Positions 6,708 through 61,327 of a DNA stretch of 64,000 nucleotides are shown here, in pieces. Origin of the DNA: Chloroflexota bacterium (GTDB taxonomy: Bacteria; Chloroflexota; Dehalococcoidia; GIF9; UBA5629); NCBI GenBank assembly GCA_036821185.1, contig DAISKD010000004.1, positions 6,063 to 70,062 of the forward strand. The letters are read 5' to 3'. The notes beneath the pieces are model-generated. The model saw only the letters and a list, made by a program, of their open reading frames with translations. It was not told where the DNA came from and did no database searches. The position numbers were made by a program, and so were the translations under genes. The first letter of the stretch is position 1. Each line of letters begins with the position of its first letter.

Positions 6708-6710
6708 ACC

Positions 6711-7559: not shown

Positions 7560-7577
7560 GCCCCGATCACCCCCGGT

Positions 7578-10839: not shown

Positions 10840-12138
10840 CGCTTCGGCGACCACGAAAAGCGAGCCGGTGACCAGCACTATGTCAGTCTCCCCGGTCACG
10901 CTCAGGGCTCGTGAAAGCGCCTCCGGGACGCTGGTACTCCGCTCAATTTTCACACCACTACCCTCAAATGCCTCAACTAGCACCGGGATAGAAGCTGCCC
11001 TGGGATGAGTTGAGCTGGTGATAATGACCCGGTCTGCCAGCGAGCGCAACTCCCTCACCATCCCCGGAATATCCTTATCGCAGGATGTGCCAAAGATAAC
11101 TATGCACTTATCATAGTGAAAATACCTCTTCACAGCCTCCGCCAGCCTGCGCATAGAATCGGCGTTGTGCGCCCCATCTACCACCACCAGAGGCTCCTTC
11201 TTGAGAATTTGGAGCCTTCCCTGCCATACCACACCCTTCATCCCCTGGAGGATTGCCTCGTCGGGAATTACCACCCCCAGGGACATCAGCGCTTCTATCG
11301 CTGCCACTGCGGTAGCTGCATTCTCCAGTTGATGATCACCGAGCAGTGGTATCTCAAGTTCATACTCGCTTCTCCGGGTACGCACCACCAGGCGCTGACC
11401 ATTTAGGTCGCCACCTTTCCTTTCCCAGGTGACGTCCTTACCTACTTTGACCAGCTCTGACCCTTTCTCGGCACATACGTTCTCGATCACTATAGCGGCA
11501 TCCTCTACCTGCGGGGCACTGACCACTATACTGCCCGGCTTAATGATCCCCGCCTTCTCGGCTGCGATCTTTGCCACAGTGTCACCCAGTATTTCCATGT
11601 GGTCAAGGCTGATGGAGGTAATCACGCAGACATCCCCTTGGGCTACATTGGTGGCATCAAGTCTGCCACCAAGACCTACCTCCAGCACCTGAAACTCCAC
11701 AGCTTTGTTCCTGAAATGGGCAAAAGCCACTGCGGTCAATATCTCGAAGGTGGTCAATGCCCCATATCTGGCTTCACTGTTGACTGCCTCCACCGCTGGC
11801 TTAATCTCAGAGACCAGCGCGGCAAATTCTTGCTCCGAGATCATGGCCCCATTGACCTTGATGCGCTCCCTTATGGTGTGAAGGTGTGGCGAAGTATATG
11901 TGCCAGTTTGATAACCAGCAGCAATAAGCACCTGAGAGACCATTGCCGCCGTGCTACCTTTGCCCTTGGTCCCGGCGATATGCACTGTCTTCCTCCCCAG
12001 ATGCGGGGTGCCCAGTAAGCGGAGCAGCTCCTCCATCCGCCTTAGGTCATAGTTAGCCGCCGTATAGGAAATACCGGGGATTTTCTCGTAATCGGTGAAG
12101 CTCAGGATATACTTTTCTGCTTGGTTAAAGTCCATCAT
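10792..12138 (-). CDS. folC: Bifunctional folylpolyglutamate/dihydrofolate synthase
   Basis: HIAGTKGKGSTA, YTSPHL, EVGLGGRLDATNV, DGAHN. ATG 12138 lies 6 nt after TGgTATAAT (leaderless). Confidence 0.96.
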   Translation of the reverse strand: MMDFNQAEKYILSFTDYEKIPGISYTAANYDLRRMEELLRLLGTPHLGRKTVHIAGTKGKGSTAAMVSQVLIAAGYQTGTYTSPHLHTIRERIKVNGAMISEQEFAALVSEIKPAVEAVNSEARYGALTTFEILTAVAFAHFRNKAVEFQVLEVGLGGRLDATNVAQGDVCVITSISLDHMEILGDTVAKIAAEKAGIIKPGSIVVSAPQVEDAAIVIENVCAEKGSELVKVGKDVTWERKGGDLNGQRLVVRTRRSEYELEIPLLGDHQLENAATAVAAIEALMSLGVVIPDEAILQGMKGVVWQGRLQILKKEPLVVVDGAHNADSMRRLAEAVKRYFHYDKCIVIFGTSCDKDIPGMVRELRSLADRVIITSSTHPRAASIPVLVEAFEGSGVKIERSTSVPEALSRALSVTGETDIVLVTGSLFVVAEALHYAATRLSSGVGES

Positions 12139-44186: not shown

Positions 44187-45182
44187 ATGCGAACGCTGAG
44201 CATCGGCAAAATAAGAGGGTTGCAGCAGATATCGACCGCTGATGGCATATTCACCATGTGCGCCATGGACCACCGCGACTCACTGAAGAGCATGATCGAA
44301 AAGGCACAGGGTAAACAGCCTGGATATGAGGAGATGGTCGAATACAAACTCGACCTGTGCGCCGCACTTGCCCCCCACGCCAGTGCCGTGCTTCTAGACC
44401 CCATTTATGGCGCACCGCAATGTATCGCCAGCGGAGTGCTGCCGCGTACCACGGGCCTGCTCGTCAGCATTGAAGCCACCGGCTATGAGAGTACCTCTGA
44501 AGGGCGGGTAACCAGATTGCTCAATGGATGGGGTGTGGACAAAATCAAGCGAATGGGCGCCTCCGCCGTAAAGATCCTCGTCTATTATCGCCCTGACATT
44601 ACCAAAGCAGCCACAAAGCAACAGGATACCATCAAAAAAGTAGCGAAGGATTGTCTTAAATACGACATACCCTTTCTGGTCGAACCGAAGACATACGCTT
44701 TGCGGAATGAGGACCCGAGGTCAGCGCAGTTCGCTGCCAGTAGGCCCAACCTTGTCATTGAGACTGTGCGTCAGCTGACCTCCATGCCGTTGGACGTGCT
44801 TAAGGTAGAGTTTCCCGCTGATTTCGAGTACGAGACTGATGAAAAGAGGCTTCTAGAGCTTTGCCACCAGCTTGATGAGGCGGCGACAGTGCCCTGGGTA
44901 ATACTCAGCGCAGGTATAGACTATCCGGCTTTCCGCAAAGAGGTAGAATTTGCCTGCCGTGCTGGAGCTTCGGGATTCCTCGGCGGCCGTGCCATATGGC
45001 AAGAGGCGGTAGCGATAAGGGACAGGAAAGAGCGGCTGAAGTTCCTCTCTACCACTGTGGTCGATAGGCTAAAAGAATTGACGGATATAGCCTCCAGATA
45101 CGGTATGCCATGGTACCGTAAGCTAAACATGGACAACTCCCGTCTTACCCCAATCGGTGACGGCTGGTACCGGGAGTACTGA
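44187..45182 (+). CDS. lacD: Tagatose-1,6-bisphosphate aldolase-family class I aldolase (LacD/YihT)
   Basis: AMDHRDSL, LLDPIYG, KILVYYRPD, PFLVEP, DVLKVEFP, PWVILSAG, SGFLGGRAIW. Confidence 0.9.
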   Translation: MRTLSIGKIRGLQQISTADGIFTMCAMDHRDSLKSMIEKAQGKQPGYEEMVEYKLDLCAALAPHASAVLLDPIYGAPQCIASGVLPRTTGLLVSIEATGYESTSEGRVTRLLNGWGVDKIKRMGASAVKILVYYRPDITKAATKQQDTIKKVAKDCLKYDIPFLVEPKTYALRNEDPRSAQFAASRPNLVIETVRQLTSMPLDVLKVEFPADFEYETDEKRLLELCHQLDEAATVPWVILSAGIDYPAFRKEVEFACRAGASGFLGGRAIWQEAVAIRDRKERLKFLSTTVVDRLKELTDIASRYGMPWYRKLNMDNSRLTPIGDGWYREY

Positions 45183-45185
45183 AAT

Positions 45186-46628
45186 ATGGGCCTTTACATC
45201 CCACCAAAGCCTTATCGCAGGACCAAAATCGTCTGCACCATCGGACCGAGCAGCAGTTCCGCTGAGACCATCCAGAAAATGCTTGAGGCTGGTATGGATG
45301 TCGCCAGGCTCAACTTCTCTCATGGCACTCACAAGGAACATGCCGCGGTGATAAGAACGTTACGCAGGGTAGCCAGGAGAGCTGGCTTCCCTCTGGCTAT
45401 AATGCAGGACTTACCTGGCCCTAAAAACCGGACAGGCAAACTGAAGAATGGCACCATAGAACTAAGAGAGGGGGCAGAATTTATTTTGACCACAAAGCAG
45501 GTGCTGGGCAATGAGCACTTAGTCTCTGTCGAGCTACCAGAGTTGCCTAAAAAAGTGAAACCCGGACATGCAATCTACCTGGATGATGGTGCTATAGAAC
45601 TGAAAGTGATCGAAACCGGCTCCACCGATGTCCGCTGTCTGGTGGTGACAGGGGGCATACTCGGGGAGGAGAAAGGTATAAACGTCCCTAATGTAGACTG
45701 GGATACGCCAGCAATCACCGATGAGGACTGGGAGCATCTTCGCTTCGGCCTTAAACACGAGGTAGATTTTGTGGCACTGTCTTTCATTGAAGAGGCTGGC
45801 GACATTAAGAAAGTGAAAGAATTCCTGCGCCGGGGCAACACTCCCCCTGCAGTAATAGCCAAGATAGAAAGACAGGAAGCCCTGGATAACCTGGATGAGA
45901 TACTTGACACAGCCGATGGTGCCATGGTCGCCAGAGGCGACCTGGGTATTGAAATACCGCTGCCCAGAGTGCCTGTCGTCCAAAAGGAGATCATCAAAAA
46001 ATGCAATCGCCTTGGCAAGCCGGTCATCGTCGCCACCCAGATGCTAGAGTCCATGGTCAGTTCCCCCCGTCCCACCAGGGCTGAGGTCACCGATGTCGCC
46101 AATGCCATCTTTGACGGTGCCGATGCCATCATGCTCTCCGAAGAGACAGCGATAGGAGAGTACCCGGTTGAGTCCGCCTCCATAATGGCACAGATCGCTC
46201 TGGAAGCCGAGGCCGCCCTGCCCTACGAGGAGATACTTCTGAACAAGGAAAAGGACGTGCAGCCGAAAACCGATGATGCCATAAGCTACGCCGCCTGTCA
46301 TACCGCCCACCAGCTTGGAGCCGCTGCCATCGTAGCCTTCACTTCTTCAGGAAGCACCGCCAGACGCGCCTCAAAGTATCGTCCCAGAGCGCCCATCCTG
46401 GCTATCACCCCGAACCGTAGCACACAGCGCCAGCTCTCCCTGTCATGGGGGGTGCGCGCCTTTCACTTCCCCGAACCTTCGCGCCTAACAGTCCTCTTCG
46501 CTCGCGGTGGCCGGCTGGCTAAAAAGACTGGTCTGGCCAGGAAAGATGATATAGTGGTGATCACCGGCGGCGTGCCCATCGGTGTTCCGGGTAGCACCAA
46601 CTTGCTTAAGGTGGAAAGAGTGAGGTAA
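45186..46628 (+). CDS. pyk: Pyruvate kinase
   Basis: TKIVCTIGP, ARLNFSHG, IAKIE, MVARGDLG, ATQMLESM...PRPTRAE. Confidence 0.98.
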   Translation: MGLYIPPKPYRRTKIVCTIGPSSSSAETIQKMLEAGMDVARLNFSHGTHKEHAAVIRTLRRVARRAGFPLAIMQDLPGPKNRTGKLKNGTIELREGAEFILTTKQVLGNEHLVSVELPELPKKVKPGHAIYLDDGAIELKVIETGSTDVRCLVVTGGILGEEKGINVPNVDWDTPAITDEDWEHLRFGLKHEVDFVALSFIEEAGDIKKVKEFLRRGNTPPAVIAKIERQEALDNLDEILDTADGAMVARGDLGIEIPLPRVPVVQKEIIKKCNRLGKPVIVATQMLESMVSSPRPTRAEVTDVANAIFDGADAIMLSEETAIGEYPVESASIMAQIALEAEAALPYEEILLNKEKDVQPKTDDAISYAACHTAHQLGAAAIVAFTSSGSTARRASKYRPRAPILAITPNRSTQRQLSLSWGVRAFHFPEPSRLTVLFARGGRLAKKTGLARKDDIVVITGGVPIGVPGSTNLLKVERVR

Positions 46629-46630
46629 AC

Positions 46631-47560
46631 ATGATTGCCACAGTAACTCTGAACCCCAGTCTGGACAGGACGGTCACCGTTGAAGGACTGATTATCGAGG
46701 AGGCAAACCGCTGGACCAGCTTCCGTGAAGACCCCGGTGGCAAAGGTATAAACGTCTCACGCGTCGTCCACGAGCTTGGTGGCGAGACCATAGCCTATGG
46801 GTTCATCGGCGGTGCCGCCGGTGAGACGCTTAAAAGGTTGCTGAGAAAGCAAGGGGTCCCGTTCGATTTTACCCCGATCAAAGGAGAAGTAAGAAGCAAC
46901 TTTATCATCACAGATCTCAAGACGAACCGCCAGACCAGGATCGACGCCCCCGGTCCGCGCATCTCGAGAGAAGAACTGGCTGAACTTGTTAACACATTGA
47001 TACATATGAAGAAACAGCCCGACTACCTGGTCTTCGCCGGTAGCGTGCCACCCGGTATCCCCGACGACATATACTACAGGCTGATAATTGGCACCAAAAG
47101 CTACGGCATAAAGACGGTGCTGGACTCCGATAAACAGTGGTTAAGAGAGGGCATCAAGGCAAAACCTGACATAATCAAACCTAATGTACACGAGACGGAA
47201 GAGCTGCTCGGCACAGAGCTAAAGAACGAGGCGTCAATCGTCAAGGCCGCTCGAGCGCTGGTTGAACAGGGCATCGGTTTGGTAGCCGTTTCTAGAGGTA
47301 GACACGGTATGATCGTTGCCAACAGTGAAAAGGTCTTGAAAATAGTAGCCCCACGGGTGCGCGTTCGCAGCACTGTTGGTGCGGGCGACTCCGCCCTTGC
47401 CGCTTTAATCCTTAGATTAAGTCAGGGCTACAGCCTCGAAGAGTCCTGCCGCTGGGCAGTTGCCGCCGGCACGGCAGCTACGCTTACCCCGGGCACCGAA
47501 CTCTGCCGTCGCCAAGACGTGGAAAAACTCCTCCCTAAGGTAACGGTACAACAGCTTTAA
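46631..47560 (+). CDS. 1-phosphofructokinase-family (PfkB/FruK/LacC) hexose kinase
   Basis: TVTLNPSLD, GGKGINVS, IKPNVHE, STVGAGDS. Confidence 0.92.
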   Translation: MIATVTLNPSLDRTVTVEGLIIEEANRWTSFREDPGGKGINVSRVVHELGGETIAYGFIGGAAGETLKRLLRKQGVPFDFTPIKGEVRSNFIITDLKTNRQTRIDAPGPRISREELAELVNTLIHMKKQPDYLVFAGSVPPGIPDDIYYRLIIGTKSYGIKTVLDSDKQWLREGIKAKPDIIKPNVHETEELLGTELKNEASIVKAARALVEQGIGLVAVSRGRHGMIVANSEKVLKIVAPRVRVRSTVGAGDSALAALILRLSQGYSLEESCRWAVAAGTAATLTPGTELCRRQDVEKLLPKVTVQQL

Positions 47561-48170: not shown

Positions 48171-48809
48171 CTATAGATCGACCAACATGGGCTTCAGTTC
48201 CACAAGGCTTGTCAGCGAGCCATCGCTTCCCCCGCTCCTGTCAAGGTGAAAGGCATGCATACCCACCTTCTGAGGAAATACAAAATCGAACTCCCTATTA
48301 TCACCGACATGGACGATCTGTTCAGGAGACACGCCCATTGCTCTGCAAATCTCCTGATAGAACTCTGGCGTCTTTAGTCGCCGGTAATCGGAAAGCGAGG
48401 AGAATACCCTGCTAAAATAGGGCTCTATACCTTCGAGAAGATGACACAAAAACTCTCGCATGGAACCTGAAGCCACAATCAGTATATACCGCTGACCCAG
48501 CTCAGCCAGCACACTCTTGACCTCAGGGTAATACGAGACTTTATGACGATAGCCTGCCATAACTGGCTCCGGTGAGCCCAGCCCGAATCTGTTAAACCAG
48601 TAGCGCACATCGTACCACTCCAGCCTCTGATCGCCCACTTTTTTGTACTCTTCCTCGATGATGCTCTTTGCCGTTGCAAAGTCAACGCCGTACCTCTCGG
48701 CATATTTCTCCGGGATAGCCTCGTACCAGATGGAATAGCTGAAATCTGTGGTCACCAGGGTACCCTCGGCATCAAAAGAGACTATTTTAATCTGGTCAAG
48801 TTTACCCAT
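48171..48809 (-). CDS. HAD family hydrolase
   Basis: SFDAEGTL, HVGDNREFD. Confidence 0.88.
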   Translation of the reverse strand: MGKLDQIKIVSFDAEGTLVTTDFSYSIWYEAIPEKYAERYGVDFATAKSIIEEEYKKVGDQRLEWYDVRYWFNRFGLGSPEPVMAGYRHKVSYYPEVKSVLAELGQRYILIVASGSMREFLCHLLEGIEPYFSRVFSSLSDYRRLKTPEFYQEICRAMGVSPEQIVHVGDNREFDFVFPQKVGMHAFHLDRSGGSDGSLTSLVELKPMLVDL

Positions 48810-48893
48810 TTTGCCCAGAAAATGTTATCATTTCCCCTTGCTAATTCCAAGACGAAATTGGAAATTTGAACGGCTAAAGTTTAAAATTAGATG

Positions 48894-50063
48894 ATGCGCC
48901 TGGGCTACCTTACCGATACATACAACCTTAACCTCTGCTTCGAAGTGGGACCTATAAGGCCCCCAAGCGAGGCATTTTCGCTGCTTATCAGGGCCACCAG
49001 GAATTGCCCCTGGAACCGCTGTCAGTTCTGCCCGGTGTACAAAGGGCAAAGGTTTGAGCTGCGTCCTGCGGATGAGGTGGTGAAAGACATCGAGACCGCC
49101 AAAGCCATCGCCGAGGGTATTAGGAAGCTTGCCTGGAAAGCTGGCTATGGGGACAGGGTGAGGGAAATAGCCGCCAGCATCTACAACAGCTATGCCCACA
49201 ACGCCAGCGTACGCAATGTCGCCCTATGGCTCTGGGCTGGGGGTACAACGGCTTTCCTTCAGGACGCCAATAGCCTGATAATGAGGACACCCGACCTGGT
49301 GAAGGTGGTGTCCGCACTTAAGCAGGCCTTCCCCGGGTTATCCCGGATAACTTCCTACGCCCGCTCCAAAACAGCGGCGAAGAAGTCCCTGGAAGAGCTG
49401 CGGGAATTGAAGGATGCCGGTCTATCACGCTTGCACATCGGTATGGAGAGCGGCTCGGACGCGGTCCTCGCCTACATGGATAAAGGAGTGACTGCCGAGG
49501 AACACGTCCTTGGTGGTAGAAAGGTAAAAGAAGCTGGTATTTCGCTCTGCGAATATGTCATGCCTGGCCTTGGTGGCAGAAAGATGTCCGCTGAACACGC
49601 CAGAGAGACCGCCAGGGTACTAAATGAGATCAACCCCGACCATATCAGGCTGCGCACCCTACAGGTGCATCCGAACACGCCGCTGTGGGAAAAACTGGAG
49701 TCCGACGACTTCCAGCTCCAGTCGGAGGATGAGATAGTCCATGAGATCGGTGAGTTCATTTCCAGGCTTGAGTTCACCGGCGAACTTAAGAGCGACCATA
49801 TCCTGAACCTGCTGCCTGAGCTGGAAGGCAAGTTCCCCGAAGCCAGAGACTCCTGCCTCGCCATCATTTCTAGATATTTTTCGCTGCCGGAAAACGAAAG
49901 GTTGAACTTCAAGCTGGGAAGGAGGCTGGGGCTCTACGAAAGACTGGACGACATACATGACCCGACGAAATACCAGCACATCGACCAAGCGCTAAGACGG
50001 ATAATGCAGTCTGGAGAAGATGTGGAAAAGGTCATCCAGAATTTCAAGGTCAGCTACCTGTAA
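48894..50063 (+). CDS. Radical SAM protein of unknown function
   Basis: RNCPWNRCQFC (CX4CX2C), HIGMESGSD; TAAAAT at 48882-48887 lies 6 nt before ATG 48894. Confidence 0.88.
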   Translation: MRLGYLTDTYNLNLCFEVGPIRPPSEAFSLLIRATRNCPWNRCQFCPVYKGQRFELRPADEVVKDIETAKAIAEGIRKLAWKAGYGDRVREIAASIYNSYAHNASVRNVALWLWAGGTTAFLQDANSLIMRTPDLVKVVSALKQAFPGLSRITSYARSKTAAKKSLEELRELKDAGLSRLHIGMESGSDAVLAYMDKGVTAEEHVLGGRKVKEAGISLCEYVMPGLGGRKMSAEHARETARVLNEINPDHIRLRTLQVHPNTPLWEKLESDDFQLQSEDEIVHEIGEFISRLEFTGELKSDHILNLLPELEGKFPEARDSCLAIISRYFSLPENERLNFKLGRRLGLYERLDDIHDPTKYQHIDQALRRIMQSGEDVEKVIQNFKVSYL

Positions 50064-50184: not shown

Positions 50185-51936
50185 ATGAAAAAGAGAATAG
50201 CGATAATAGCCTGTGCGGCACTGGCCGCCATATGTCTGGTATTAGGCAGTATATATCTCACCCGCACCACCAGCACAAGGGTGCCTGGAGAAACCAAGGT
50301 CAAGGGCGTCTTCATTGAAGGGCAATCTGGCGGCGATGCCGAGACGCTCAACTGGATATTAGCTGCCGATGCCACCTCCTTTAGCTACGTGGGGCACACT
50401 CTGGACTCGCTGGCAACTTACGATAACAACTTCAATATCCAGCTCCGCTGCCTGGCTAAAGACATCGAAGTGTCGCCGGACGGTCTGGTCTATACCGTTA
50501 CCATCAGGGATGACCTCAGGTGGAGCGACGGCTCCCCGGTCACCGCCGAAGACTATGTATATACCCTGAAGAACCTCATGTTCTCCAACTGGTTGACCTA
50601 TCCCTATAAGAGCGACTGGCAGGAGGAGGTCAACGGAGAGAAAGTATTCGTTACTCCCGAGGTAGTGAATGAGACCACATTCACCATAACCCGTCAGACG
50701 GTGGACCCCGAGTTCGTCTATACCCTTTACGACCTCACTCCGTACCCCAAGCACATAGCCCAGAAGTACGAGGGGGCTGCTGAAGCATTCATGCAGGCAC
50801 CCGAGTTCAACAACCTGAGCTATACCGGTAACCTCGGTCCCTACCGCTTCAAAGAGTGGAACCGCAACGATAGGTTTGTGGTGGAGCGTAACCCTGACTA
50901 CTACCTGGGCAAAGATGTCGGTGCCCCTTACTTCGAGCAGTACATAATTAAACTGTTCGGCACCTCCGCCACCAGGCAGGCAGCGCTGGAAGCTGGGGAC
51001 ATTACCTACACCGGCATCGAACCGGAATTGGTAGCTAAATTTAAGAGCCTCCCCCACATCAAAGTCTATACCGTCCCCACCTCCGGCTATACCATCCTAG
51101 CCTACAACCAGAGGGCTAATGGATGGGAAGGGCTGAAGAACAAAGAGGTTAGGCAGGCCCTTTCCATGGCGATAAACAAGCTGGCGATAACCCAGACCAT
51201 ACTTCTGGGCTTCGCCGAGCCCGCATTCAGCTTCATTCCCAAGGTCTCCCCGTGGTACACAGAGGAAAGTGTTGTAAAGTACGGAGTCAGCCCATTGTAT
51301 GATAAACAAAAAGCTGCCGAGATACTTTACCGGCTGGGGTACGGCATAAGGCAGGCAGACAATACCATAAAAGTCACCAAAAAAGACGGCAGTCTCCTGC
51401 AATTGAGGCTGGTGGTAAACGTCGGCAGCAAGCCGGCAGAGGATATGGCTTTCTTCATTAGAAAAGAGCTCCTGGAACTGGGGATAGAGACGGAGATCAA
51501 ATTGGTGCCCTGGCCGACCCTGCTAAGGCAATATGTGATGAATACCGTGCCCGGCTCGAAGCAGGAGCCAGCCTATAACAAAGGCCCCGAAGCTGTAAGC
51601 CAGGAGGAATGGGACTTCATCCTCATGGGCTTCGGTACCGACCCGCTGGCACCTTCCGGGAGCCATGTGTTCTTTGCCTCACACGGCGGGCTTAACTTTA
51701 TGGGCTACTCGAACCAGGAGGTCGATGAACTGTTCGCCAGAGCGAAATCGAAGGAAGCACTGGACAAAGGGGTGAGGCAAAAGATTTACGCTGAACTTTC
51801 CCACCTGCTTTCCGAAGAACAACCGGTGAACTTCCTCGCCTTCCACAGGGCCAACCGCGGTTTCCTCAAGAACGTCATGGGCATCGAGCCCGGGGTGAAC
51901 ATGGGCTACAATTACCATTTGTGGTATTTTGAGTAG
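50185..51936 (+). CDS. Peptide/nickel ABC transporter substrate-binding protein (SBP family 5)
   Basis: WSDGSPVTAEDYVYT, GPYRFKEW, VVERNPDYY, VRQALSMAIN; N-terminal hydrophobic anchor. Confidence 0.92.
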   Translation: MKKRIAIIACAALAAICLVLGSIYLTRTTSTRVPGETKVKGVFIEGQSGGDAETLNWILAADATSFSYVGHTLDSLATYDNNFNIQLRCLAKDIEVSPDGLVYTVTIRDDLRWSDGSPVTAEDYVYTLKNLMFSNWLTYPYKSDWQEEVNGEKVFVTPEVVNETTFTITRQTVDPEFVYTLYDLTPYPKHIAQKYEGAAEAFMQAPEFNNLSYTGNLGPYRFKEWNRNDRFVVERNPDYYLGKDVGAPYFEQYIIKLFGTSATRQAALEAGDITYTGIEPELVAKFKSLPHIKVYTVPTSGYTILAYNQRANGWEGLKNKEVRQALSMAINKLAITQTILLGFAEPAFSFIPKVSPWYTEESVVKYGVSPLYDKQKAAEILYRLGYGIRQADNTIKVTKKDGSLLQLRLVVNVGSKPAEDMAFFIRKELLELGIETEIKLVPWPTLLRQYVMNTVPGSKQEPAYNKGPEAVSQEEWDFILMGFGTDPLAPSGSHVFFASHGGLNFMGYSNQEVDELFARAKSKEALDKGVRQKIYAELSHLLSEEQPVNFLAFHRANRGFLKNVMGIEPGVNMGYNYHLWYFE

Positions 51937-51999
51937 CAGTAATATACCGTAAGGGCAGGCGTGAGGCAGTCCAGCCAGAAGCGCTGGGCAAAGGCGACT

Positions 52000-52977
52000 A
52001 TGAGGAAAAGCTGGCTCCGCGACTATATCATAAAAAGGCTCCTTTACTCAATACTTATCGCTTGGGGCATACTCACCGTCACCTTCATCCTGGTGAGGGT
52101 GGGCCCCAGTTCCCCAGCCGACAAGTACCTGGCTAACCTGGCTGCTAAAGGACAGGATCCCTCACAGGTGATAGCTGCCATAGAAGCCAGATACGGCTTG
52201 GACAAGCCTATACTCCAGCAATACGGGGAATACATGCTAAACCTGCTCCGGGGAAACTGGGGGTGGTCGTTCAGCACCTCGATGCCGGTGATGGAGCTGA
52301 TCAAGCGCCACTGGGTCTATTCCTTCCAGTTGATACTGCTGAGCAGCATTTTCGCTGCCGTGCTTGGTATCCTCATCGGCATCTATTCGGCAGTGAAGCA
52401 ATACACCAAGGCTGACTATGCCTTCACCTTTCTCTCCTTCATCGGCATCTCGATACCCAATTTCTGGCTCGGCGTGATGCTCATCCTTGTCTTCTCTGTA
52501 AAGCTCGGACTGTTCAAGACCTATTATGACACCACATTGCCATTGTTCTCCCCGGCCAACCTCAAGGCATTGGTGCTACCGGTGATAACCCTGGGCACGG
52601 GCATGCTCGCTGCCTATGTCAGATATACCAGGTCAGCTATGCTGGACAATCTAAGAAAGCCCTTCGTCATCACAGCACGAGCTAAAGGTCTACCGGAGCC
52701 TCTGGTCATCGGAAAGCACGTTTTCCGAAATGCCCTGCTCCCCCTGGTGACTATAATCATGTTTGACCTGGGTAGCATCGTATTCGGCGGTGCTTACCTC
52801 ACCGAAATCGTCTTCGGCATCCCGGGGCTAGGGCAGGTATCCTTCAACGCCATCTTTGCCAACGATTACCCGGTGGTGGTCGCGATCACCCTTATCGGGA
52901 CACTGGTGGTGCTGCTGGTCAACCTGATTACAGACATAACCTATACTTATCTCGACCCGAGGATAAGATATGACTGA
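52000..52977 (+). CDS. Peptide ABC transporter permease (OppB/DppB)
   Basis: GLDKP...QY, ISIPNFWLG, ARAKGL...HVFRNALLP, DYPVV. Confidence 0.93.
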   Translation: MRKSWLRDYIIKRLLYSILIAWGILTVTFILVRVGPSSPADKYLANLAAKGQDPSQVIAAIEARYGLDKPILQQYGEYMLNLLRGNWGWSFSTSMPVMELIKRHWVYSFQLILLSSIFAAVLGILIGIYSAVKQYTKADYAFTFLSFIGISIPNFWLGVMLILVFSVKLGLFKTYYDTTLPLFSPANLKALVLPVITLGTGMLAAYVRYTRSAMLDNLRKPFVITARAKGLPEPLVIGKHVFRNALLPLVTIIMFDLGSIVFGGAYLTEIVFGIPGLGQVSFNAIFANDYPVVVAITLIGTLVVLLVNLITDITYTYLDPRIRYD

Positions 52978-53932
52978 CAGAAAGGAAGTAGCAGGCAAAG
53001 ACAGAACAGCTTTTCACGGCGGTGGTTTCAGGCTGGTCAGCTACTACTGGCAAAGGATGACGAGGAACCGTCTGGCTGTCTTCGGCCTCGCCTTCATTAT
53101 CTTCCTAGCACTGGTCGCCATCATCGGTCCCTTCTTCACCCCTGACCCCACGCAGGTGGACTTCGAGGCGAAAAACCTGCCACCCATCGGATTCACCACC
53201 ACTCAGGCTGTTTACGACATAACCACCGACCAGTTTATCACCAAAAAGATTTCAGGCACGTGGAAACACCCCCTGGGTACTGACCGGAAGGGACGGGACA
53301 TGCTGGCGATGATAGTCTCCGGGGCAAGGGTCTCCCTGCAGGTAGGTCTTCTTGCCACTGGGTTAGCCGTAATCATCGGCACCATCATTGGCGTCATGTC
53401 AGCTTATCTGGGTGGCTGGGTGGACAACGCCTTGATGAGGTTCACCGATGTGATGATGACCTTCCCCTTCTTCCTGTTGCTGGTGCTCATAGTGTTCATT
53501 TTCGGACCTAGCCTAGCCTTCATCGTTTTCGCCATCGGACTCACCGGCTGGACGGGCACCGCCCGCCTGGTAAGGAGCGAGTCACTATCTCTGAGAACAC
53601 GTGAATTTGTAATGGCAGCTAAAGCACTGGGAGCCAGCGATAGCAGAGTGGTCTTCCGCCACCTGATCCCAAACGTCATCAGCTTGATCATCGTCATTGC
53701 CACATTATCTATCCCCGGCGTAATCCTGGCTGAAGCCGCCCTTAGCTTCATCGGTCTTGGCGACCCCACCACACCGAGCTGGGGAATAATCCTGGAGGAG
53801 GGACAACACAGCCTGGATACCGCCTGGTGGGTGGCTGTGGAGCCCGGGATCATGTTGTTCTTGACCGTCCTTGCCTTCAACTTCCTCGGCGACGGGCTGA
53901 GGGATGCCTTTGACCCGAAAAGCAATGTTTAG
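52970..53932 (+). CDS. Peptide ABC transporter permease (OppC/DppC)
   Basis: HPLGTDRKGRD, EFVMAAKALGA, HLIPNV, EAALSFIGLG, NFLGDGLRDAFDPK. Confidence 0.93.
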   Translation: MTDRKEVAGKDRTAFHGGGFRLVSYYWQRMTRNRLAVFGLAFIIFLALVAIIGPFFTPDPTQVDFEAKNLPPIGFTTTQAVYDITTDQFITKKISGTWKHPLGTDRKGRDMLAMIVSGARVSLQVGLLATGLAVIIGTIIGVMSAYLGGWVDNALMRFTDVMMTFPFFLLLVLIVFIFGPSLAFIVFAIGLTGWTGTARLVRSESLSLRTREFVMAAKALGASDSRVVFRHLIPNVISLIIVIATLSIPGVILAEAALSFIGLGDPTTPSWGIILEEGQHSLDTAWWVAVEPGIMLFLTVLAFNFLGDGLRDAFDPKSNV

Positions 53933-53947
53933 CAGGAAAAGCCGGAA

Positions 53948-54931
53948 ATGCAGTCTCACAGCGGAAACAACATCATACTCAGCGTAAACGCTCTGCAGAC
54001 CTTCTTTTTCACCCGTCGCGGCATAGTCAGGGCGGTGAACGGGGTTAGCTTTGAGCTGAGACAGGGCGAATGCCTCTGCCTGGTGGGGGAGTCGGGATGC
54101 GGCAAGAGCGTCACCGCACTTTCTATCCTCAGGTTGTTCGATAGTCCCCCTGGCAGGATAGTCGGCGGTAACGTGGTCTACAACTCCTTAGACTTGACAT
54201 CGTGCCCAGAGCAGCAATTAAGAAAGGTCCGCGGCAAGGAAATCGCCCTTGTGCTTCAGGAAGCACAGTCGGCGCTTAACCCCGTGCTGACGGTAGGCGA
54301 CCAGATAATAGAGCAGATGAAAATCCACCTCCCTTTAAGTAAAGAAGAGGCAAGGCTGAAAGCCATAAGCCTGCTCCGCGAAATGGGCATACCGTCGGCA
54401 GAAGACGTCCTGGACTACTACCCCCACCAACTTTCCGGCGGCATGAAGCAGAGGGTACTGGTGGCCATGAGCCTCTGCTGCGACCCCCGAATACTTATTG
54501 CCGATGAGCCTACCACCGCTGTGGATGTGACTATAAAAGCCCAGGTCCTGGACATGTTCCGCCAGCTAAAGGAGAAACGGCAGATGTCCATCATCTTCAT
54601 AACCCATGACCTAGCAGTTGTAGCTGAGATCGGTGACCGGGCAGTAATCATGTACGGCGGCAGGGACATCGAGACCGCCCCAGTATCAGAGGTAATCGCC
54701 ACTCCGGCGCACCCTTACACCAAAGGTTTGCTGGCATGCCTGCCGGATGTGTCCCGGGAGGTGGACAGGTTGAGTTCGATCCCTGGCATGCCCCCAGACC
54801 CCTCAAAGTTACCACCGGGCTGCACCTTCCATCCCAGATGCCCGAAAGCAATGGACATCTGCCGTACACAGGAGCCATCGCTAACTGAAATCTCGAAAGA
54901 GCATAAGGTGAGGTGCCACCTGTATGCCTGA
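53948..54931 (+). CDS. Peptide ABC transporter ATPase (OppD/DppD)
   Basis: [41 protein letters not shown]. Confidence 0.94.
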   Translation: MQSHSGNNIILSVNALQTFFFTRRGIVRAVNGVSFELRQGECLCLVGESGCGKSVTALSILRLFDSPPGRIVGGNVVYNSLDLTSCPEQQLRKVRGKEIALVLQEAQSALNPVLTVGDQIIEQMKIHLPLSKEEARLKAISLLREMGIPSAEDVLDYYPHQLSGGMKQRVLVAMSLCCDPRILIADEPTTAVDVTIKAQVLDMFRQLKEKRQMSIIFITHDLAVVAEIGDRAVIMYGGRDIETAPVSEVIATPAHPYTKGLLACLPDVSREVDRLSSIPGMPPDPSKLPPGCTFHPRCPKAMDICRTQEPSLTEISKEHKVRCHLYA

Positions 54932-55901
54932 TAAAGAAAAGTCATTGCTGGAAGCCACAGACCTTAAAAAATACTACCCACTGACCGCGGGCATAATCTC
55001 TCGCCACATAGGCGATATAAAGGCTGTCGATGGGGTGACCTTCAACATTAAAGAGCGGGAGATCCTGGGGCTGGTCGGTGAGTCCGGCTGCGGTAAATCT
55101 ACCCTGGGCAAGACCGTCCTCAGGTTAGAAGAGCCCACCAGCGGCAGGATCCTCTATAAAGGGGCTGACATCACCAGACTGGACAAACGTGCCCTCAGAG
55201 AGCTGAGAAAGGAGATGCAAATAATCTTCCAGGACCCCGAGGCATCACTCGACCCAAGGATGACCGTTGGCCAGTCTATCTGTGAGCCCCTGCTGATCCA
55301 CAATGTCGGAGATGATAGGGAGAGGGAAGAGACGGTGGCACGGTTGCTGGAGCAAGTGGGACTGGAGCCGCACCAGGCAGACCTTTATCCCCATGAGCTC
55401 AGCGGTGGACAGAAACAACGCGTCGGCATTGCCCGCGCCCTGGCTCTGAGCCCCAAGCTTATCATCGCCGATGAGCCGGTAAGTGCCTTGGATGTCTCTA
55501 TTCAGGCGCAGATATTGAACCTGATGCTAGACATCCAGGATCAGATGGGCTTGAGCTACTTGTTTATCGCCCACGACCTCTCTGTAATCAAGTACGTAGC
55601 ACACCGTATAGCTGTCATGTATCTGGGCAAGATTGTGGAACTGGCTGATAATAAGGAACTATTCCACAACCCCCTGCATCCTTACACTGAAGCGCTTATC
55701 TCCGCCGTACCCGGCCTGAGAACAAAGGGCAGAAAAAGGACTATTTTGCCCGGCGAGGTCCCTTCCCCACTCAACCCACCATCCGGCTGCCGCTTTCATC
55801 CTAGATGCCCCTACGCTATACCGGTCTGCCAGCATGAAGAGCCGGTACTGATAGAGGTATCACAGGGACATTCCGTAGCCTGCCACCTGCACCGGCGCTA
55901 G
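54924..55901 (+). CDS. Peptide ABC transporter ATPase (OppF/DppF)
   Basis: [42 protein letters not shown]. Confidence 0.94.
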
Positions 55902-57325
55902 ATATGAGGAGCAGCATCCGGGCAGATTGCGATCGGACCGGCCTGGGCTGGCACCTGTGCTGCCAGTTCTTTCACCATATAGGCTCCGTCTAGCTCGTAG
56001 CCAAACTCAGAGCGGAAGTATTCCCTGGCGCCAACACCACTGATAACCGCTATCCTTGATGCCCCGAATTCGAGCCTGGCAATACGCTCAGCCTCCTGGA
56101 GCAGTCGTCTACCCAGTCCCCTATGTTGCACGGCGATGTCCGCTCGACTACCCAGCGGCACCTCTGTGCCGAATACATGCAACTCCCGTACCATGACTGT
56201 GCCGTCGGAGTCCATAAGTTTACCGCTGGCCCTCATCCTCAACAGGGCAAACAGAGTACCTTCGCTGTCCTCAAAAGAAAGGAAGACCTCCCTGCCGTCT
56301 GATGCCGTATAGTCTTGCCTTCTTAATTCCGGTTCACCAGGTTTCCAACCGTCACGCGTCCGGTGGCCGTACTCACGGCAACGGATACAACGACAGCTCA
56401 GCCCCAACTCGGCCATCTTTCTCTTCAGGGAACTCCTCAACGCCAGGTCCTTACAGCCAGCGACTATGTACTTGTCTGGAATATCTCGCATGACCCTGGC
56501 AATCCGGACATACGCCGGAATAAGAAGCTTGATGTCTATCATCAAATTCGCCAGTTCCTCCATACTGTAAGGTCGGTAACGACCATCATGATACCAACTC
56601 TCAAGTTCGGTGCCGGCTACCACCAGGGTGGGGTAAAGTTTCAGCCCATCAGGCCTGAAGTTTGCGTCCTGGAAAAGGGTTTGCGTTAGCTCCAGGTCGT
56701 GCTCAGGAGTAGAGCCCGGGAGTCCCGGCATCCAGTGGTAGTAGACTTTGAAGCCGTAGTCCTTGAGCAGCCTGGTCGCCCGAACCACGTCATCCACGGT
56801 GTGCCCACGTCTTACCAAGCGGAAAATATCATCGTCAAGTGTCTGTACGCCCAGCTCCACCCTCGTAGTGCCGAATTCCAGCATTCGCTTCACATCCTCT
56901 TCACTGCACCAGTCCGGCCTGGTCTCAATGCATAGTCCCACACAACGGTGCTTCGCCGTCTCGTTTATCTTTTTGGCGGCTTCCAGGGTTGGTGAATCAC
57001 ACTCATTGAGGACATCGTAACAGCTCTTGATGAACCAATACTGATAGTCTTCAGGGCAGGCGAGAAAGGTGCCGCCCATTACTATCAACTCCACCTTGTC
57101 CGCTGGGTGGCCCATAGCTGAAAGGGTCTTCAGTCTCACCTCGACCTGCTTCCTGGGGTCATATTCACAAGCTTTCGCCCTCAACACCGCTGGCGACTCG
57201 GGCGTGTAGCTCTTGGGTGTGTCCGCGAAATCGGGACAATAAATGCACTTGCCCGGGCAGCCGAACGGCTTTGCCATAACCGCCACCGGGGTCACTCCAG
57301 ATATAGTCCTTGAAATTTTCCGCAT
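55898..57325 (-). CDS. elp3: Elp3-family tRNA uridine(34) acetyltransferase (radical SAM + KAT)
   Basis: CPGKCIYC, GHPADKVELIVMGGTF, IETRPD, TRVELGVQ, PDGLKLYPTLV, RIARVMRDIP, CRCIRCRE, RELHVFG, QHRGLG, ISGVGAREY, GYELDGAYM. Confidence 0.95.
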   Translation of the reverse strand: MRKISRTISGVTPVAVMAKPFGCPGKCIYCPDFADTPKSYTPESPAVLRAKACEYDPRKQVEVRLKTLSAMGHPADKVELIVMGGTFLACPEDYQYWFIKSCYDVLNECDSPTLEAAKKINETAKHRCVGLCIETRPDWCSEEDVKRMLEFGTTRVELGVQTLDDDIFRLVRRGHTVDDVVRATRLLKDYGFKVYYHWMPGLPGSTPEHDLELTQTLFQDANFRPDGLKLYPTLVVAGTELESWYHDGRYRPYSMEELANLMIDIKLLIPAYVRIARVMRDIPDKYIVAGCKDLALRSSLKRKMAELGLSCRCIRCREYGHRTRDGWKPGEPELRRQDYTASDGREVFLSFEDSEGTLFALLRMRASGKLMDSDGTVMVRELHVFGTEVPLGSRADIAVQHRGLGRRLLQEAERIARLEFGASRIAVISGVGAREYFRSEFGYELDGAYMVKELAAQVPAQAGPIAICPDAAPHI

Positions 57326-57363
57326 ACTGTGATTTCCTTAAAGAAGTTTAGCAAATTGACACT

Positions 57364-58011
57364 ATGGGAACAAACGCTACTGTTTTTGATGAAATAGCTG
57401 AAAGTTGGTACCGCGTCCACCACTGGTCGCGCTTCAGCCATGAGCTTAAAGAGCTGTCCCTGAGGTGGCAGCAAGGTAGATTGCTCAATATCGGCTGCGC
57501 CCACGGTCCCGATTTTCTGCCCTTCAGGGAGCGATTCGAATTATGGGGCCTTGACGTTTCAGGGCAGATGATAGCGCTGGCTAAAAGATATGCCGCAAAG
57601 TTTAATCTTCAGGTGAACCTGGCAATAGCAGATGCCATCAGCCTTCCCTACCGCGACAACTCCTTTGATTGGGCTATCGCCATCGCAGTTTACCACCACA
57701 TTAGAGGAGAAAAGGAAAGATATCAGGCATTCCTGGAACTGAAGCGTGTACTCAAGCCCGGCGGCGAAGCCTTCATAACCGCATGGAACCGCTGGCAGCC
57801 CGGGTTCTGGCTAAAGGGCAAAGAGGTCAATATGCCATGGAGGTTAAGAGGACGCATACTATACCGCTATTACTACCTCTTCTCCTACGCAGAGCTCGAC
57901 AGGTTGCTGAAGCAGGTAGGATTTACCGCCCTACGCCTCTCCCCTGAAAAAATGCACCGTTCGCCGTTCCCCTTGCTGTCACGAAATATCTGTGCGCTGG
58001 TCAAAAAATAG
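57364..58011 (+). CDS. Class I SAM methyltransferase, Trm9/ALKBH8-like
   Basis: FDEIA..W, NIGCAHG, LPYRDNSFDWAIAIAVYHH, ER...ELKRVLKPGG.A.I.AW, V.MPW, YRYYYLFSYAEL. Confidence 0.8.
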   Translation: MGTNATVFDEIAESWYRVHHWSRFSHELKELSLRWQQGRLLNIGCAHGPDFLPFRERFELWGLDVSGQMIALAKRYAAKFNLQVNLAIADAISLPYRDNSFDWAIAIAVYHHIRGEKERYQAFLELKRVLKPGGEAFITAWNRWQPGFWLKGKEVNMPWRLRGRILYRYYYLFSYAELDRLLKQVGFTALRLSPEKMHRSPFPLLSRNICALVKK

Positions 58012-58123: not shown

Positions 58124-61120
58124 CTATAGCCCCTCAGTGAAGGTGGAAAGGGCGATGGGCAGAAAAGCTTCCACAAGCTGTGGGTCAAACTGGCTGCCAG
58201 CGCATCGCTTTAACTCTGCTATCGCCTCCTGATAGGACAAGGCACCACGATAGGGACGCGATGAGGTCATAGCATCAAATGCATCGGCTATGGCCAGTAT
58301 ACGTGCCTCAATAGGAATATTTTCCCCTTTCAGTCCTGTAGGATAGCCACTCCCGTCCCATCGCTCGTGGTGGTGGAGGATAGCTGGCACACAAGAGACT
58401 AAGTCAAGCACATGGCTCACGATAGTCGTTGACAATTTGGGGTGGGCACGGACCATTTCCCACGCCTGCGCGTCAAGGGCTCCCGGTCTGTTCAGCACCT
58501 CGTCAGGGATCCCTATCTTGCCGATATCGTGGAGCAGGGCAGCGGTGCTGATCACGGCCACCTTTTCTGGCGATAAGTCTAACTTCTCGGCTAAGGCAAC
58601 GGCGTAGTTACTCACCTTTCTAGAGTGCCCGTAAGTATACCGGTCTTTAGCTTCGATCGTAGCTGCCAGTGCGTATATAACATTGAGGGCTTCTTTATCG
58701 GAAGCTGTCCCAGGCATCGAAGCTACCGCAGTGCTCAAAATCCGAGACACGATACAGGTACGGTCACCACCTGTCTTCTTTGCATAATAGAGAGCCCTAT
58801 CCGCAGCGCTGAGTAGCGCATCAGGCATTACCCCGTCATTGGGCCAGGTGGCTATACCTACGCTGGCCGTTATCCTAGGGTCGACCTTGCCCATCTCCTG
58901 AGCAATCCTGCCACGGATGCGCTCGGCAACCACAAAAGCTGCAGCGGAGTCCGTCTGAGGTAGCAGTATAGCAAACTCATCACCATCATAGCGGAAAGAG
59001 AGGTCAGTGCTCCTCACCGACCGCTGGATTATCCTCCCTACATCAGCCAGCAGCTTATCGCCAGCCGCATGGCCATGGACATCGTTGTACGCCTTGAAAA
59101 GGTCGAGGTCCAGCAAGATCAAAGAAAATGTGCCACCGTATCTCTGGCGTAAGTCTATCTCTTGCTTCAACCGTTCATCGAAATGACGCCTGTTGAACAG
59201 CCCGGTAACCTCGTCTACCCTTGCCCTTTGCTCAGCCCTGCCATAGAGGCGGCTGTTCTCCACCGGCACTGCTATTTGTGCAGCCAGGCGCTCGAGCAAT
59301 GACACTTGCTCCTGCGTGTATGCATTGGGTCTGCGACTGGCAATTATCAGTCCTCCGATGGGCTCGCCTTTGGCGATCAGAGGTAGATAGACTATTGACC
59401 GGATGTCCTGCTTGAGGTGCAGGTCTCCAGTCCAGAACTTTCGACTTTCAGACAGGTCGGACTCAAACAGGGCTTTACGGTACTTCAGTACCCACTCCGT
59501 ACCCGTCCCCTCCAGAGGAATTCTATCTCCTTGCTGCCACGGCGAATCGATATCTGTAGCAAACAGAGCCTCAAAAACAAGCTCTTCTCCATCGACCAGC
59601 GCGATGGCTGCCCAGTCCACATCCACAACCTTTTTCAGCTCAGCCACAAAGGCAGCGTATACCTCTTGGATATTAAGGCTCGAGGTCATCACCCTGACCA
59701 GTTCATTTATCAGCGCTAGCTCCTGTTCCCGTTTTCTTAGTTGCTCGTGGAAATATTCCTTCTCTAAATTCGCAGCTAGCTGCTTGGTTACCGACTCCAG
59801 CAGCGCAATATCCTCGGCAGAATATCTCCCCGACCTCTTCCTACTAAGCGCCAGGATGGCAATTAGATTGTCGTCATTGATTAGAGGGAGGAGCAGTTCG
59901 AGATCCAGAGCTTGAAGCTGCGCTTTTACCTCGGCACCGAGATACATGAACTCCGGCGAAACCTCTATCTCATCACGCAGGAGATACCTGCGCTCGCGCT
60001 TTAACCACCTGACGATGGGAGTGTACTTGCCGATGCTCAGTGAGGAAGCGTCTACGCCTTTGGGCTCGACGAAGCTCGCCTTATAACTGCCGTCATTCGG
60101 TACAGGCAGCAGCAGCGCCGCCGATTTGGCGCCTAGACTGCCGGCAATCAGGGGCAGCAACTTATGCGCCAGCTCCGTTAAACTAGGAGTACGAGGTAGT
60201 TCACTGTTTACAAAATACAGCAACCTGTGACGATAGTTGCGCTCTCTCCTGCCTACAAACAATTGCTCCATGCCGGTGAAGATCAAGCCCCTCAGCCCAT
60301 AAGCGACGCCAACAACTATTATTGCTGAGACAGCAGAGACTCCCAGCGCCAGCCAGTCGAATGACTTGCCGGCAAGCCAATAAGCCAAAGCAAGGAGGCA
60401 GGCATAGACTGCAACACCGGCAAATATCAGGCCCACCCAGGCTAATGCCCGCCGCAGCACGATCTGTATGTCCAACAAACGGTGTTTCAGCAGCGCATAG
60501 GCCAAGGTAGCAGCAGTCAATAACGCGCCTACGCCAGCCACAGGATAACGCTTGCCGAAGTCGCTGAAAGCGTTCAGTAAGCTGAAACACGCCATCAGCA
60601 CGATGCCGAATAGCAGGTACATGTACTGATTGCGCCACAGCGGGTCAGTGATGGCTCCGAGCCTCCGACATAGCAGGTAAAAGTCCCTGCCAAACAGGAC
60701 CGCTAAGGCGGCTGGCAGGACAAAGGCCCACTTGTGATAGACCGGAACAGCGACGCCATTGTCTACCTTGAGGTCAGTCACAACGTAACCAGCCAGCACC
60801 ATGCCCACCAGGGCTACCATCAAGATGTAAGCAAAGGGAAAACGCAGTCCCCTGTTATCGTAAAAGGAGGCAAGAAAATAGTGGATCTGTACCGCTGCCC
60901 AGATGAACAAGTAGGCCGTGATCTGAAGCAAAAAAAGTCCATGCTGCGCAAAAAAGTTACTGCGAAAAAGAAAGTCACTCCATGTCCACAGGATGGTGGC
61001 GAGTACACACAGGGCAAAGAGTTTTTGTTGTCTGCCCCACGGACGATTAAGTAAAACTACTACACCCAACAGGACGAAGGCTACCGCGGTCACCAGGGAA
61101 ATCAATGCTGCTGCATTCAT
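58124..61120 (-). CDS. Membrane-bound GAF-GAF-GGDEF-HD-GYP c-di-GMP signalling protein
   Basis: About 7 N-terminal TM helices, two GAF-like regions, DEVTGLFNRR, DLDLFKAYND, RSTD...DGDEF, LHDIGKIG, HHERWDGSGYP.GL. Confidence 0.92.
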   Translation of the reverse strand: MNAAALISLVTAVAFVLLGVVVLLNRPWGRQQKLFALCVLATILWTWSDFLFRSNFFAQHGLFLLQITAYLFIWAAVQIHYFLASFYDNRGLRFPFAYILMVALVGMVLAGYVVTDLKVDNGVAVPVYHKWAFVLPAALAVLFGRDFYLLCRRLGAITDPLWRNQYMYLLFGIVLMACFSLLNAFSDFGKRYPVAGVGALLTAATLAYALLKHRLLDIQIVLRRALAWVGLIFAGVAVYACLLALAYWLAGKSFDWLALGVSAVSAIIVVGVAYGLRGLIFTGMEQLFVGRRERNYRHRLLYFVNSELPRTPSLTELAHKLLPLIAGSLGAKSAALLLPVPNDGSYKASFVEPKGVDASSLSIGKYTPIVRWLKRERRYLLRDEIEVSPEFMYLGAEVKAQLQALDLELLLPLINDDNLIAILALSRKRSGRYSAEDIALLESVTKQLAANLEKEYFHEQLRKREQELALINELVRVMTSSLNIQEVYAAFVAELKKVVDVDWAAIALVDGEELVFEALFATDIDSPWQQGDRIPLEGTGTEWVLKYRKALFESDLSESRKFWTGDLHLKQDIRSIVYLPLIAKGEPIGGLIIASRRPNAYTQEQVSLLERLAAQIAVPVENSRLYGRAEQRARVDEVTGLFNRRHFDERLKQEIDLRQRYGGTFSLILLDLDLFKAYNDVHGHAAGDKLLADVGRIIQRSVRSTDLSFRYDGDEFAILLPQTDSAAAFVVAERIRGRIAQEMGKVDPRITASVGIATWPNDGVMPDALLSAADRALYYAKKTGGDRTCIVSRILSTAVASMPGTASDKEALNVIYALAATIEAKDRYTYGHSRKVSNYAVALAEKLDLSPEKVAVISTAALLHDIGKIGIPDEVLNRPGALDAQAWEMVRAHPKLSTTIVSHVLDLVSCVPAILHHHERWDGSGYPTGLKGENIPIEARILAIADAFDAMTSSRPYRGALSYQEAIAELKRCAGSQFDPQLVEAFLPIALSTFTEGL

Positions 61121-61149: not shown

Positions 61150-61184
61150 AAAAAATGAGACCGACCCTTCTCGGGTCGGTCTCA
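61150..61184 (-). terminator. Intrinsic terminator (riboswitch expression platform)
   Basis: Perfect 12-bp stem TGAGACCGACCC/GGGTCGGTCTCA, 5-nt loop, T6, about 30 nt before the ATG at 61120. Confidence 0.92.
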
Positions 61185-61244
61185 CTACTTGCTCCACACC
61201 AGCTAAGTGACCGCATTGCCGCTGATGCTTCATCGCACCCCGAA
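61171..61244 (-). ncRNA. c-di-GMP-II-class riboswitch aptamer (variant pocket)
   Basis: Minus strand: UCGGG-gUGC-GAUGAA-GCAUCAGC-ggcaaugcGGUCACUUa-GCUGGUGU-GGA-GCA-AGUAGUGAGACCGA-CCCGA. P1 UCGGG/CCCGA, UGC/GCA, kink-turn GAUGA/GGA, 8-bp stem and pseudoknot UCAC/GUGA all form, matching the recalled class II consensus (GAUGAA...GGGCACUU...AGUAGUGCAACCGACC). Confidence 0.85.
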
Positions 61245-61327
61245 CCAGATCGGCCGCTTAGGGCTATATTCTCCTGTATTTACTCCTCCGACTCTGACTC
61301 CTGACTTACCAGCGTAGCTGGTCGGTA

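Follow-up and report, generated by a model that had tools for sequence, protein, structure and literature searches.

We describe here a divergent gene pair in a 64,000-nucleotide stretch of DNA (positions 6,063 to 70,062 of the forward strand of contig DAISKD010000004.1, assembly GCA_036821185.1) from a Chloroflexota bacterium of the class Dehalococcoidia; the whole stretch is called the window below. The pair consists of elp3 (55898..57325, minus strand) and a gene for an S-adenosylmethionine (SAM)-dependent methyltransferase (57364..58011, plus strand), whose start codons lie 38 bp apart. In our view the two genes are likely to form a module of archaeal/eukaryotic type for the tRNA wobble uridine, in which Elp3 would make 5-carboxymethyluridine at position 34 (cm5U34) and the methyltransferase would convert it to 5-methoxycarbonylmethyluridine (mcm5U34). 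The pathway from Elp3 to Trm9 is textbook knowledge in eukaryotes. A sequence-only reading of the window had proposed that a complete Elp3 and a methyltransferase diverge from a 38-bp region and form a two-gene cm5U-to-mcm5U module. Both open reading frames (ORFs), the spacer and the coordinates were confirmed, and the functional proposal gains computational support from the placement of the methyltransferase with Trm9, from its essential residues and from an adjacency of about 95%.

Judged by its sequence, the larger protein (475 aa) is an unambiguous Elp3 and a full-length ortholog of the Dehalococcoides mccartyi enzyme (DmcElp3), that is, a predicted tRNA U34 carboxymethylating enzyme with a radical SAM and a lysine acetyltransferase (KAT, GNAT) domain. 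TIGR01211 gives it 585 bits (cut-off 350) over profile positions 57-522. Pfam identifies the domains Radical_SAM (PF04055) and Radical_SAM_C (PF16199), while Acetyltransf_1 is a weak match of 19.4 bits, just under the cut-off of 20.7. The match to the D. mccartyi Elp3 structure 5L7J is full-length, with 632 bits and 63% identity. The residues K77, K193, E381 and Y436 correspond to K77, K193, E386 and Y441 of DmcElp3, which are cited as functionally important (PMC6367351). All Elp3 motifs quoted in the sequence-only reading (CPGKCIYC, CRCIRC, QHRGLG and ISGVGAREY) were located by the translation check. The first of them (57236..57259, minus strand), given there as the radical SAM motif, is present and invariant in 10 Elp3 orthologs; as a small correction, it is the canonical CX3CX2C form, with C23, C27 and C30 as the [4Fe-4S] motif. 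The Zn-binding motif CRCIRC (56378..56395, minus strand) is of the three-Cys type common to bacterial and archaeal Elp3 (PMC6367351), and the acetyl-CoA motif QHRGLG of the KAT domain (56111..56128, minus strand) starts at residue 400. The cm5U34 step is established for the Elp3 family, and we infer it for this protein from its orthology to DmcElp3.

If the larger protein is an Elp3, then we can ask: is its smaller neighbor a Trm9, or one more generic methyltransferase? This protein of 215 aa is predicted to be a Trm9-family tRNA (cm5U34) carboxyl O-methyltransferase, and its Trm9-like rather than generic Methyltransf_11 nature is well supported by comparisons of profiles and folds; the placement rests on profile scores and signature residues, with few outgroup methyltransferase sequences. 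Pfam alone reports Methyltransf_11 (69 bits), and all named NCBIfam models, including UbiE, score far below their cut-offs. A single-sequence search of the PDB placed Yarrowia Trm9 (5cm2_Z) third (1.1e-11), with an alignment reaching the C-terminal YRYY motif. When a profile of 22 family sequences was used, Yarrowia Trm9 reached 8e-17, level with the uncharacterised PH0226. PH0226 was aligned to the SAM-binding core only (31-137), while Trm9 was aligned to 41-197 and was the only one of the four best profile matches, those shown as alignments, to reach the C-terminal half. No chain named CmoM or SmtA occurred among the PDB sequence matches. The AlphaFold (AF2) model of the protein (pLDDT 77) has a Rossmann-type strand order, and a Foldseek search of the PDB with this model ranked Yarrowia Trm9 first (E 3.7e-13, target TM-score 0.80).

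Comparison of profiles with hhalign separated the family more sharply. Against authentic fungal Trm9, the methyltransferase family gave E 1.6e-27 and the wider prokaryotic family 3.4e-44 over 196 columns, as compared with 7e-17 and 3e-12 for a control, a Methyltransf_11 paralog from several of the same genomes. A hidden Markov model (HMM) of fungal Trm9 was searched against 5,398 ORFs from the window and 164 related loci. The gene at 57364..58011 was its sole match in the window (67.5 bits). The model detected 137 of 137 full-length family members (59-95 bits) and four remoter homologs (L081-L084; 57-100 bits), three of which lie in archaeal gene contexts, and other methyltransferases did not exceed 24 bits. 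On the Pfam Methyltransf_11 model the order is reversed, the control paralog scoring 82 bits vs 69 for the window protein. By these results Trm9 is the nearest solved structure by fold and tied nearest by profile, with hhalign E-values clearly better than those of the paralog control, as the resemblance noticed from motifs alone had led one to expect. In six related loci (L012, L042, L055, L056, L059 and L069) a second Methyltransf_11 protein of 239-271 aa is encoded convergently just downstream of the Trm9-like gene (in L056, for example, at 10740..11459, minus strand); it is without the Trm9 signature and has about 21 bits on the Trm9 profile.

The active site can be read against published mutants. 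Eight residues of Saccharomyces cerevisiae Trm9 (ScTrm9), R29, D72, H116, W145, W168, R241, Y243 and N271, are those whose alanine mutants lose in vivo function (PMC4678810, Letoquart et al. 2015). A MAFFT alignment of authentic fungal Trm9 with the methyltransferase family and distant relatives matches them to position 19, D64, H112, W141, W159, R168, Y170 and N208 of the window protein, with seven of the eight identical and one Arg to His change at position 19. The control Methyltransf_11 paralog, taken from several of the same genomes, is without most of the eight. All of the following features lie on the plus strand. The N-terminal helix motif FDEIAESWYRVHHW (57385..57426) aligns with VYxxIAxHFSxTRYKPW of Trm9, and 19 of 22 family members have Arg at position 19, the R29 equivalent (57418..57420). 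It is followed by the SAM-binding motif I LNIGCAHG (57484..57507), found by alignment and translation check, and by D64 (57553..57555), equivalent to the SAM-binding Asp D72 and invariant in the family. The His-His pair H111-H112 (57694..57699) aligns with H115 and the essential H116, W141 (57784..57786) with W145, proposed to stack on U34, and W159 (57838..57840) with W168. R168-Y169-Y170 (57865..57873) corresponds to R241-Y242-Y243, of which R241 and Y243 are essential. The match of N208 (57985..57987) to N271, the proposed reader of uracil O2/N3, is the least certain equivalence, and a family-specific loop of about 10 residues precedes it. The methyltransferase motifs quoted earlier (FDEIA..W, DWAIAIAVYHH, RVLKPGG, MPW and YRYYYLF) were all found at checked coordinates, the first reading FDEIAESWY.

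These residues suggest how the module would work. Elp3 alone, without other Elongator subunits, would carboxymethylate C5 of U34, drawing on SAM radical chemistry and acetyl-CoA. The Trm9-family enzyme would then methyl-esterify the carboxyl of cm5U34 with SAM, giving mcm5U34, and 2-thiolation by another enzyme could follow. On the model proposed for yeast and Yarrowia Trm9, the cm5 carboxylate would be held next to the methyl group of SAM by the His-His pair, Arg and Tyr; the uracil would stack against W141 and be recognised at O2/N3 by N208. It is the conserved active-site residues and the gene linkage that point to the second of these steps.

The linkage was examined in both directions. In the forward test, a methyltransferase profile searched against one genome per species gave 340 confirmed relatives, and the best 80 of the 340 were examined; all of these belong to Dehalococcoidia or to Chloroflexota metagenome-assembled genomes (MAGs). 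Elp3 lies divergently and directly upstream of the methyltransferase in 74 of these 80 loci (74 of 78 testable), mostly with gaps of 30-390 bp and in five loci of 684-1582 bp. The other six comprise two loci that lack upstream sequence and four (L018, L064, L070 and L080) in which 2-10 kb upstream contains no Elp3; three of these four have another upstream context in common. In the reverse test, 80 metagenome loci were selected by Elp3, and the methyltransferase was divergently adjacent in 67 (67 of 71 testable); nine of the remaining loci were short of upstream sequence, and four had room yet no methyltransferase (L106, L116, L119 and L150, without it within 1.6-4 kb). Thus the pairing of elp3 with the methyltransferase gene, noted earlier in this one window, is kept in about 95% of testable loci in both directions.

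The genes around the pair are less constant. Beyond Elp3, the neighbor is an oligopeptide ATP-binding cassette (ABC) transporter in 21 of 48 loci, and directly downstream of the methyltransferase a GAF-GGDEF-HD-GYP gene is present in 29 of 56. Deep branches, in which the methyltransferase is 42-45% and Elp3 60-62% identical to the window proteins, retain the divergent pair. Because the pair persists at 42-45% methyltransferase identity while the flanks vary, its linkage exceeds background synteny, though it is confined to one bacterial class. In the deep relatives L166 and L167 the gene order is HAD hydrolase, 390-aa radical SAM protein, Elp3, methyltransferase, GGDEF protein. In the window (48171..50063 and 50185..55901) elp3 and the gene for the 390-aa radical SAM protein are separated by a five-gene oligopeptide ABC transporter operon, an arrangement that points to an insertion of the operon; the 3' ends of elp3 and of the last ABC ATPase gene of the operon share 4 bp (55898..55901). 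The 390-aa ORF itself (48891..50063) was grouped with Elp3 by BLAST family clustering, and we rejected it as an Elp3 paralog since it is a generic radical SAM protein. A further variant is seen in L075 (CP070810.1, a chromosome of some 1.03 Mb from a Dehalococcoidia MAG), where the remaining Elp3 ORF (8942..9733, minus strand; 263 aa) is the radical SAM half, residues 1-223, and is followed by a MalT-like regulator of 900 aa (5972..8674, minus strand).

Several observations, taken up here together with the explanations that they favor, weigh against a complete route to mcm5U34. The first concern the active site. At position 19, the R29 equivalent, the family has R, H or K; His occurs in the window protein and in the two relatives closest to it. 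Position 112, the H116 equivalent, may be H, N or C: three relatives (P0005, P0007 and P0077) have Asn there, and some 40 of the 150 distant representatives have Cys (the 'HC' subfamily). Together with the loop of about 10 residues that the family has ahead of N208 and the identity of about 27% to fungal Trm9, this would fit a true Trm9 homolog that works with Elp3 but has another chemistry or end product than mcm5U: it may use a different Elp3-dependent intermediate or another carboxylated U34 derivative, or its product may be further processed into a bacteria-specific modification. According to a 2020 review (PMC7663514), direct evidence for xcm5U34 derivatives in these bacteria is lacking and their final U34 modifications are not established; Grosjean et al. 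suspected archaeal products to be similar, not identical, to mcm5s2U. However, every residue with a proposed role in binding the uracil or the cm5 carboxylate is kept, and Trm9 function has been shown for the Haloferax volcanii Trm9. We consider a different product unlikely.

The second group concerns Elp3 and the integrity of the pair. The in vitro activity of DmcElp3 is very weak, its N-terminus is short and its affinity for tRNA is reduced (PMC7663514). In a few loci one gene is found without its partner, and in one reduced genome (L075) Elp3 is truncated and the methyltransferase intact. From this side the pair could be a decaying or altered relic, with a bacterial Elp3 barely active on tRNA and perhaps a role in regulation or on another RNA in place of general wobble modification. 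Such a fate accords poorly with the strong purifying selection that both proteins show across over 140 loci, their catalytic residues being invariant, and with the finding that acetyl-CoA hydrolysis by DmcElp3 is specifically triggered by tRNA (PMC6367351); we hold it to be quite improbable.

The third group touches the identity of the methyltransferase. Its lead for Trm9 over generic class I methyltransferases is narrow in Foldseek, PH0226 ties with Trm9 in the profile search, and Elp3 is not adjacent to the DPANN and other distant homologs examined (L081-L084 and L168). The enzyme might act on a non-tRNA substrate, a small molecule or, as the 'UbiE' label of many sources would have it, a quinone, its place beside elp3 being inherited synteny; Pfam and NCBIfam give generic Methyltransf_11 and weak UbiE-like matches, the paired loci are all in one bacterial class, and the GGDEF neighbor is often syntenic too. 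Against this, the NCBIfam matches are all far under the cut-offs, the Trm9-specific C-terminal signature is kept, and the Trm9 profile separates the co-resident methyltransferases by more than 30 bits. The pairing, moreover, holds at about 95% while both flanks are replaced, and also at 42% methyltransferase identity. There is, we think, very little chance that the substrate is not tRNA.

The last group concerns the partner of Trm9, since the eukaryotic and Haloferax enzymes depend on Trm112. No Trm112/YcaR-like ORF (PF03966) was found by regular expression or jackhmmer in the window and the 164 related loci (1.78 Mb). The Trm112-interface residues are partly changed, with F78 of Yarrowia lipolytica Trm9 replaced by E59 and R115 by S/T100, and others are kept in the methyltransferase (F101, D102 and N85). 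The enzyme may be independent of Trm112, or may be served by an unlinked partner. Within the 64-kb window there are likewise no genes for MnmE, MnmG or Cmo proteins. Elp3-bearing bacteria are said to be without MnmE/MnmG, a second-hand statement in a paper citing Glatt 2016.

To trace the family beyond Dehalococcoidia, its profile was searched against 1.84 billion representatives, which gave 98 clusters with E <=1e-30 and, under the looser limit of E <=1e-10, 2,770. The best 150 representatives (clustered at 50% identity) are mostly 200-230 aa long, and R/K19, D64, H111, W141, W159, R168 and Y170 are near-universal among them, with H, C or N at position 112. The cluster names of distant representatives are uninformative ("UbiE" or none). 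Outside Dehalococcoidia, the members that carry a name come from DPANN archaea (Nanoarchaeia, Micrarchaeota, "archaeon"), and one DPANN homolog is clustered with genes for translation and RNA processing, among them those for the exosome, TYW3, GluRS and ribosomal proteins. In the archaeal locus L168, the gene at 5851..8466 (plus strand) between the Trm9-like methyltransferase and a TrmI-like tRNA methyltransferase encodes an 871-aa radical SAM protein; it was considered as an intein-containing Elp3 and rejected, being an intein-containing AmmeMemoRadiSam enzyme.

Since DPANN archaeal proteins are among the nearest relatives that the methyltransferase has outside Dehalococcoidia, an archaeal source for the pair is probable. 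Transfer from archaea to Chloroflexota has a precedent in the archaellum clusters, which fits such an origin. A bolder scenario is that Dehalococcoidia swapped MnmEG for a laterally acquired archaeal cassette of Elp3 and Trm9, which would make mcm5(s2)U34 with a minimal Trm9 working without Trm112. We put this forward tentatively, as a possibility that we would not yet bet on.

How does the module compare with known systems? With Trm9-Trm112 of S. cerevisiae and Y. lipolytica (PDB 5CM2) and the methyltransferase domain of ALKBH8 it shares the class I SAM methyltransferase fold, to which the best Foldseek match belongs, as well as the N-terminal helix motif, His-His, W, PW, RYY, the C-terminal N and the SAM-binding Asp, and the functional link to Elp3. 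It differs from fungal Trm9 in its motif I (GCAHG instead of GCGNG), in the low identity and His at the R29 position described above, and in that the extra loop stands before the last strand. In contrast to Trm9-Trm112, no Trm112 is encoded near the window gene and the hydrophobic interface is partly replaced (F78 to E59). Unlike ALKBH8, the window protein has no RNA recognition motif (RRM) or AlkB domains.

Closer in organization are the archaeal systems. A biochemically shown archaeal Trm9 is HVO_1032 of H. volcanii, acting with Trm112, and in 2008 Grosjean et al. pointed out that the Elp3 and Trm9 genes of Sulfolobus solfataricus are clustered. As in the window, a prokaryotic stand-alone Elp3 goes with a Trm9 homolog, and the Sulfolobus genes are clustered; here, however, the host is bacterial, the genes diverge from a spacer that in most loci measures 30 to 390 bp, and the arrangement is near-universal in the clade. 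This likeness to HVO_1032 and Sulfolobus Trm9 is drawn from descriptions of these systems. PDB 6F5Z, considered as H. volcanii Trm9, was rejected, because the text of the paper identifies it as Hvo_0019, a Trm112 partner of unknown function.

The D. mccartyi Elp3 (5L7J, 6IA6) shares with the window protein its short N-terminus, the Zn Cys motif and all cited catalytic residues. Open searchable papers on it mention no Trm9 partner or in vivo product, and the window locus offers a candidate for the second step. MnmE/MnmG (xm5U34) act on the same target, C5 of U34, but they are unrelated enzymes with a different chemistry. CmoM, the cmo5U carboxyl methyltransferase, is likewise a class I methyltransferase that methyl-esterifies a carboxylated U34 derivative.

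In the searchable literature we found no paper on a bacterial Trm9, on bacterial mcm5U or on the pairing of Elp3 with Trm9 in bacteria or Dehalococcoidia, only structural work on Elp3. The sequence-only reading had claimed novelty for the module in bacteria; the claim stands as far as bacterial descriptions go and was overstated in so far as archaeal clustering of Elp3 and Trm9 is on record and JGI automated annotation calls many family members "tRNA (uracil-5-)-methyltransferase TRM9". With the methyltransferase, a family and a pathway already known gain a new bacterial representative, one that automated annotation half-recognises.

The 38-bp spacer between the two genes (57326..57363) contains a conserved AGTTTAnCAAAT block and, read on the minus strand, AAGGAAA, a Shine-Dalgarno-like element for elp3. 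Its sequence is kept in 8 short-gap loci. A promoter scan found no sigma-70 consensus promoter around it. Head-to-head genes on a short conserved spacer could be co-regulated.

Two other features of the window were recorded. Convergent with the methyltransferase gene is a gene for a 998-aa membrane protein with GAF, GGDEF and HD-GYP domains (58124..61120, minus strand), a gene that 51 of 80 related loci contain. Directly upstream of it sits a c-di-GMP-II riboswitch (RF01786, 60.8 bits; 61165..61249, minus strand), from which it appears that a sensor of cyclic di-GMP (c-di-GMP) controls a gene making or degrading c-di-GMP. Farther away, a sugar-phosphate cluster (44187..47560, plus strand) encodes a tagatose-1,6-bisphosphate aldolase-like protein, pyruvate kinase and a 1-phosphofructokinase/hexose kinase.

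The pairing makes a concrete and testable prediction, namely mcm5U-type wobble uridines in a bacterial class. DmcElp3 is a main structural model for Elongator, and reviews leave open which modification it makes in vivo; the linked methyltransferase suggests one. The Trm9-like assignment would also help to correct the many "UbiE" annotations of the methyltransferase family. The locus indicates that the pathway from Elp3 to Trm9 may be able to travel as a compact two-gene unit. If the methyltransferase proves independent of Trm112, it would provide a minimal system for the structure and mechanism of a reaction tied to human disease through ALKBH8 and Elongator. If, in addition, the pair has replaced MnmEG, these bacteria would possess the first bacterial mcm5(s2)U34 and the simplest known complete cm5U-to-mcm5U system.

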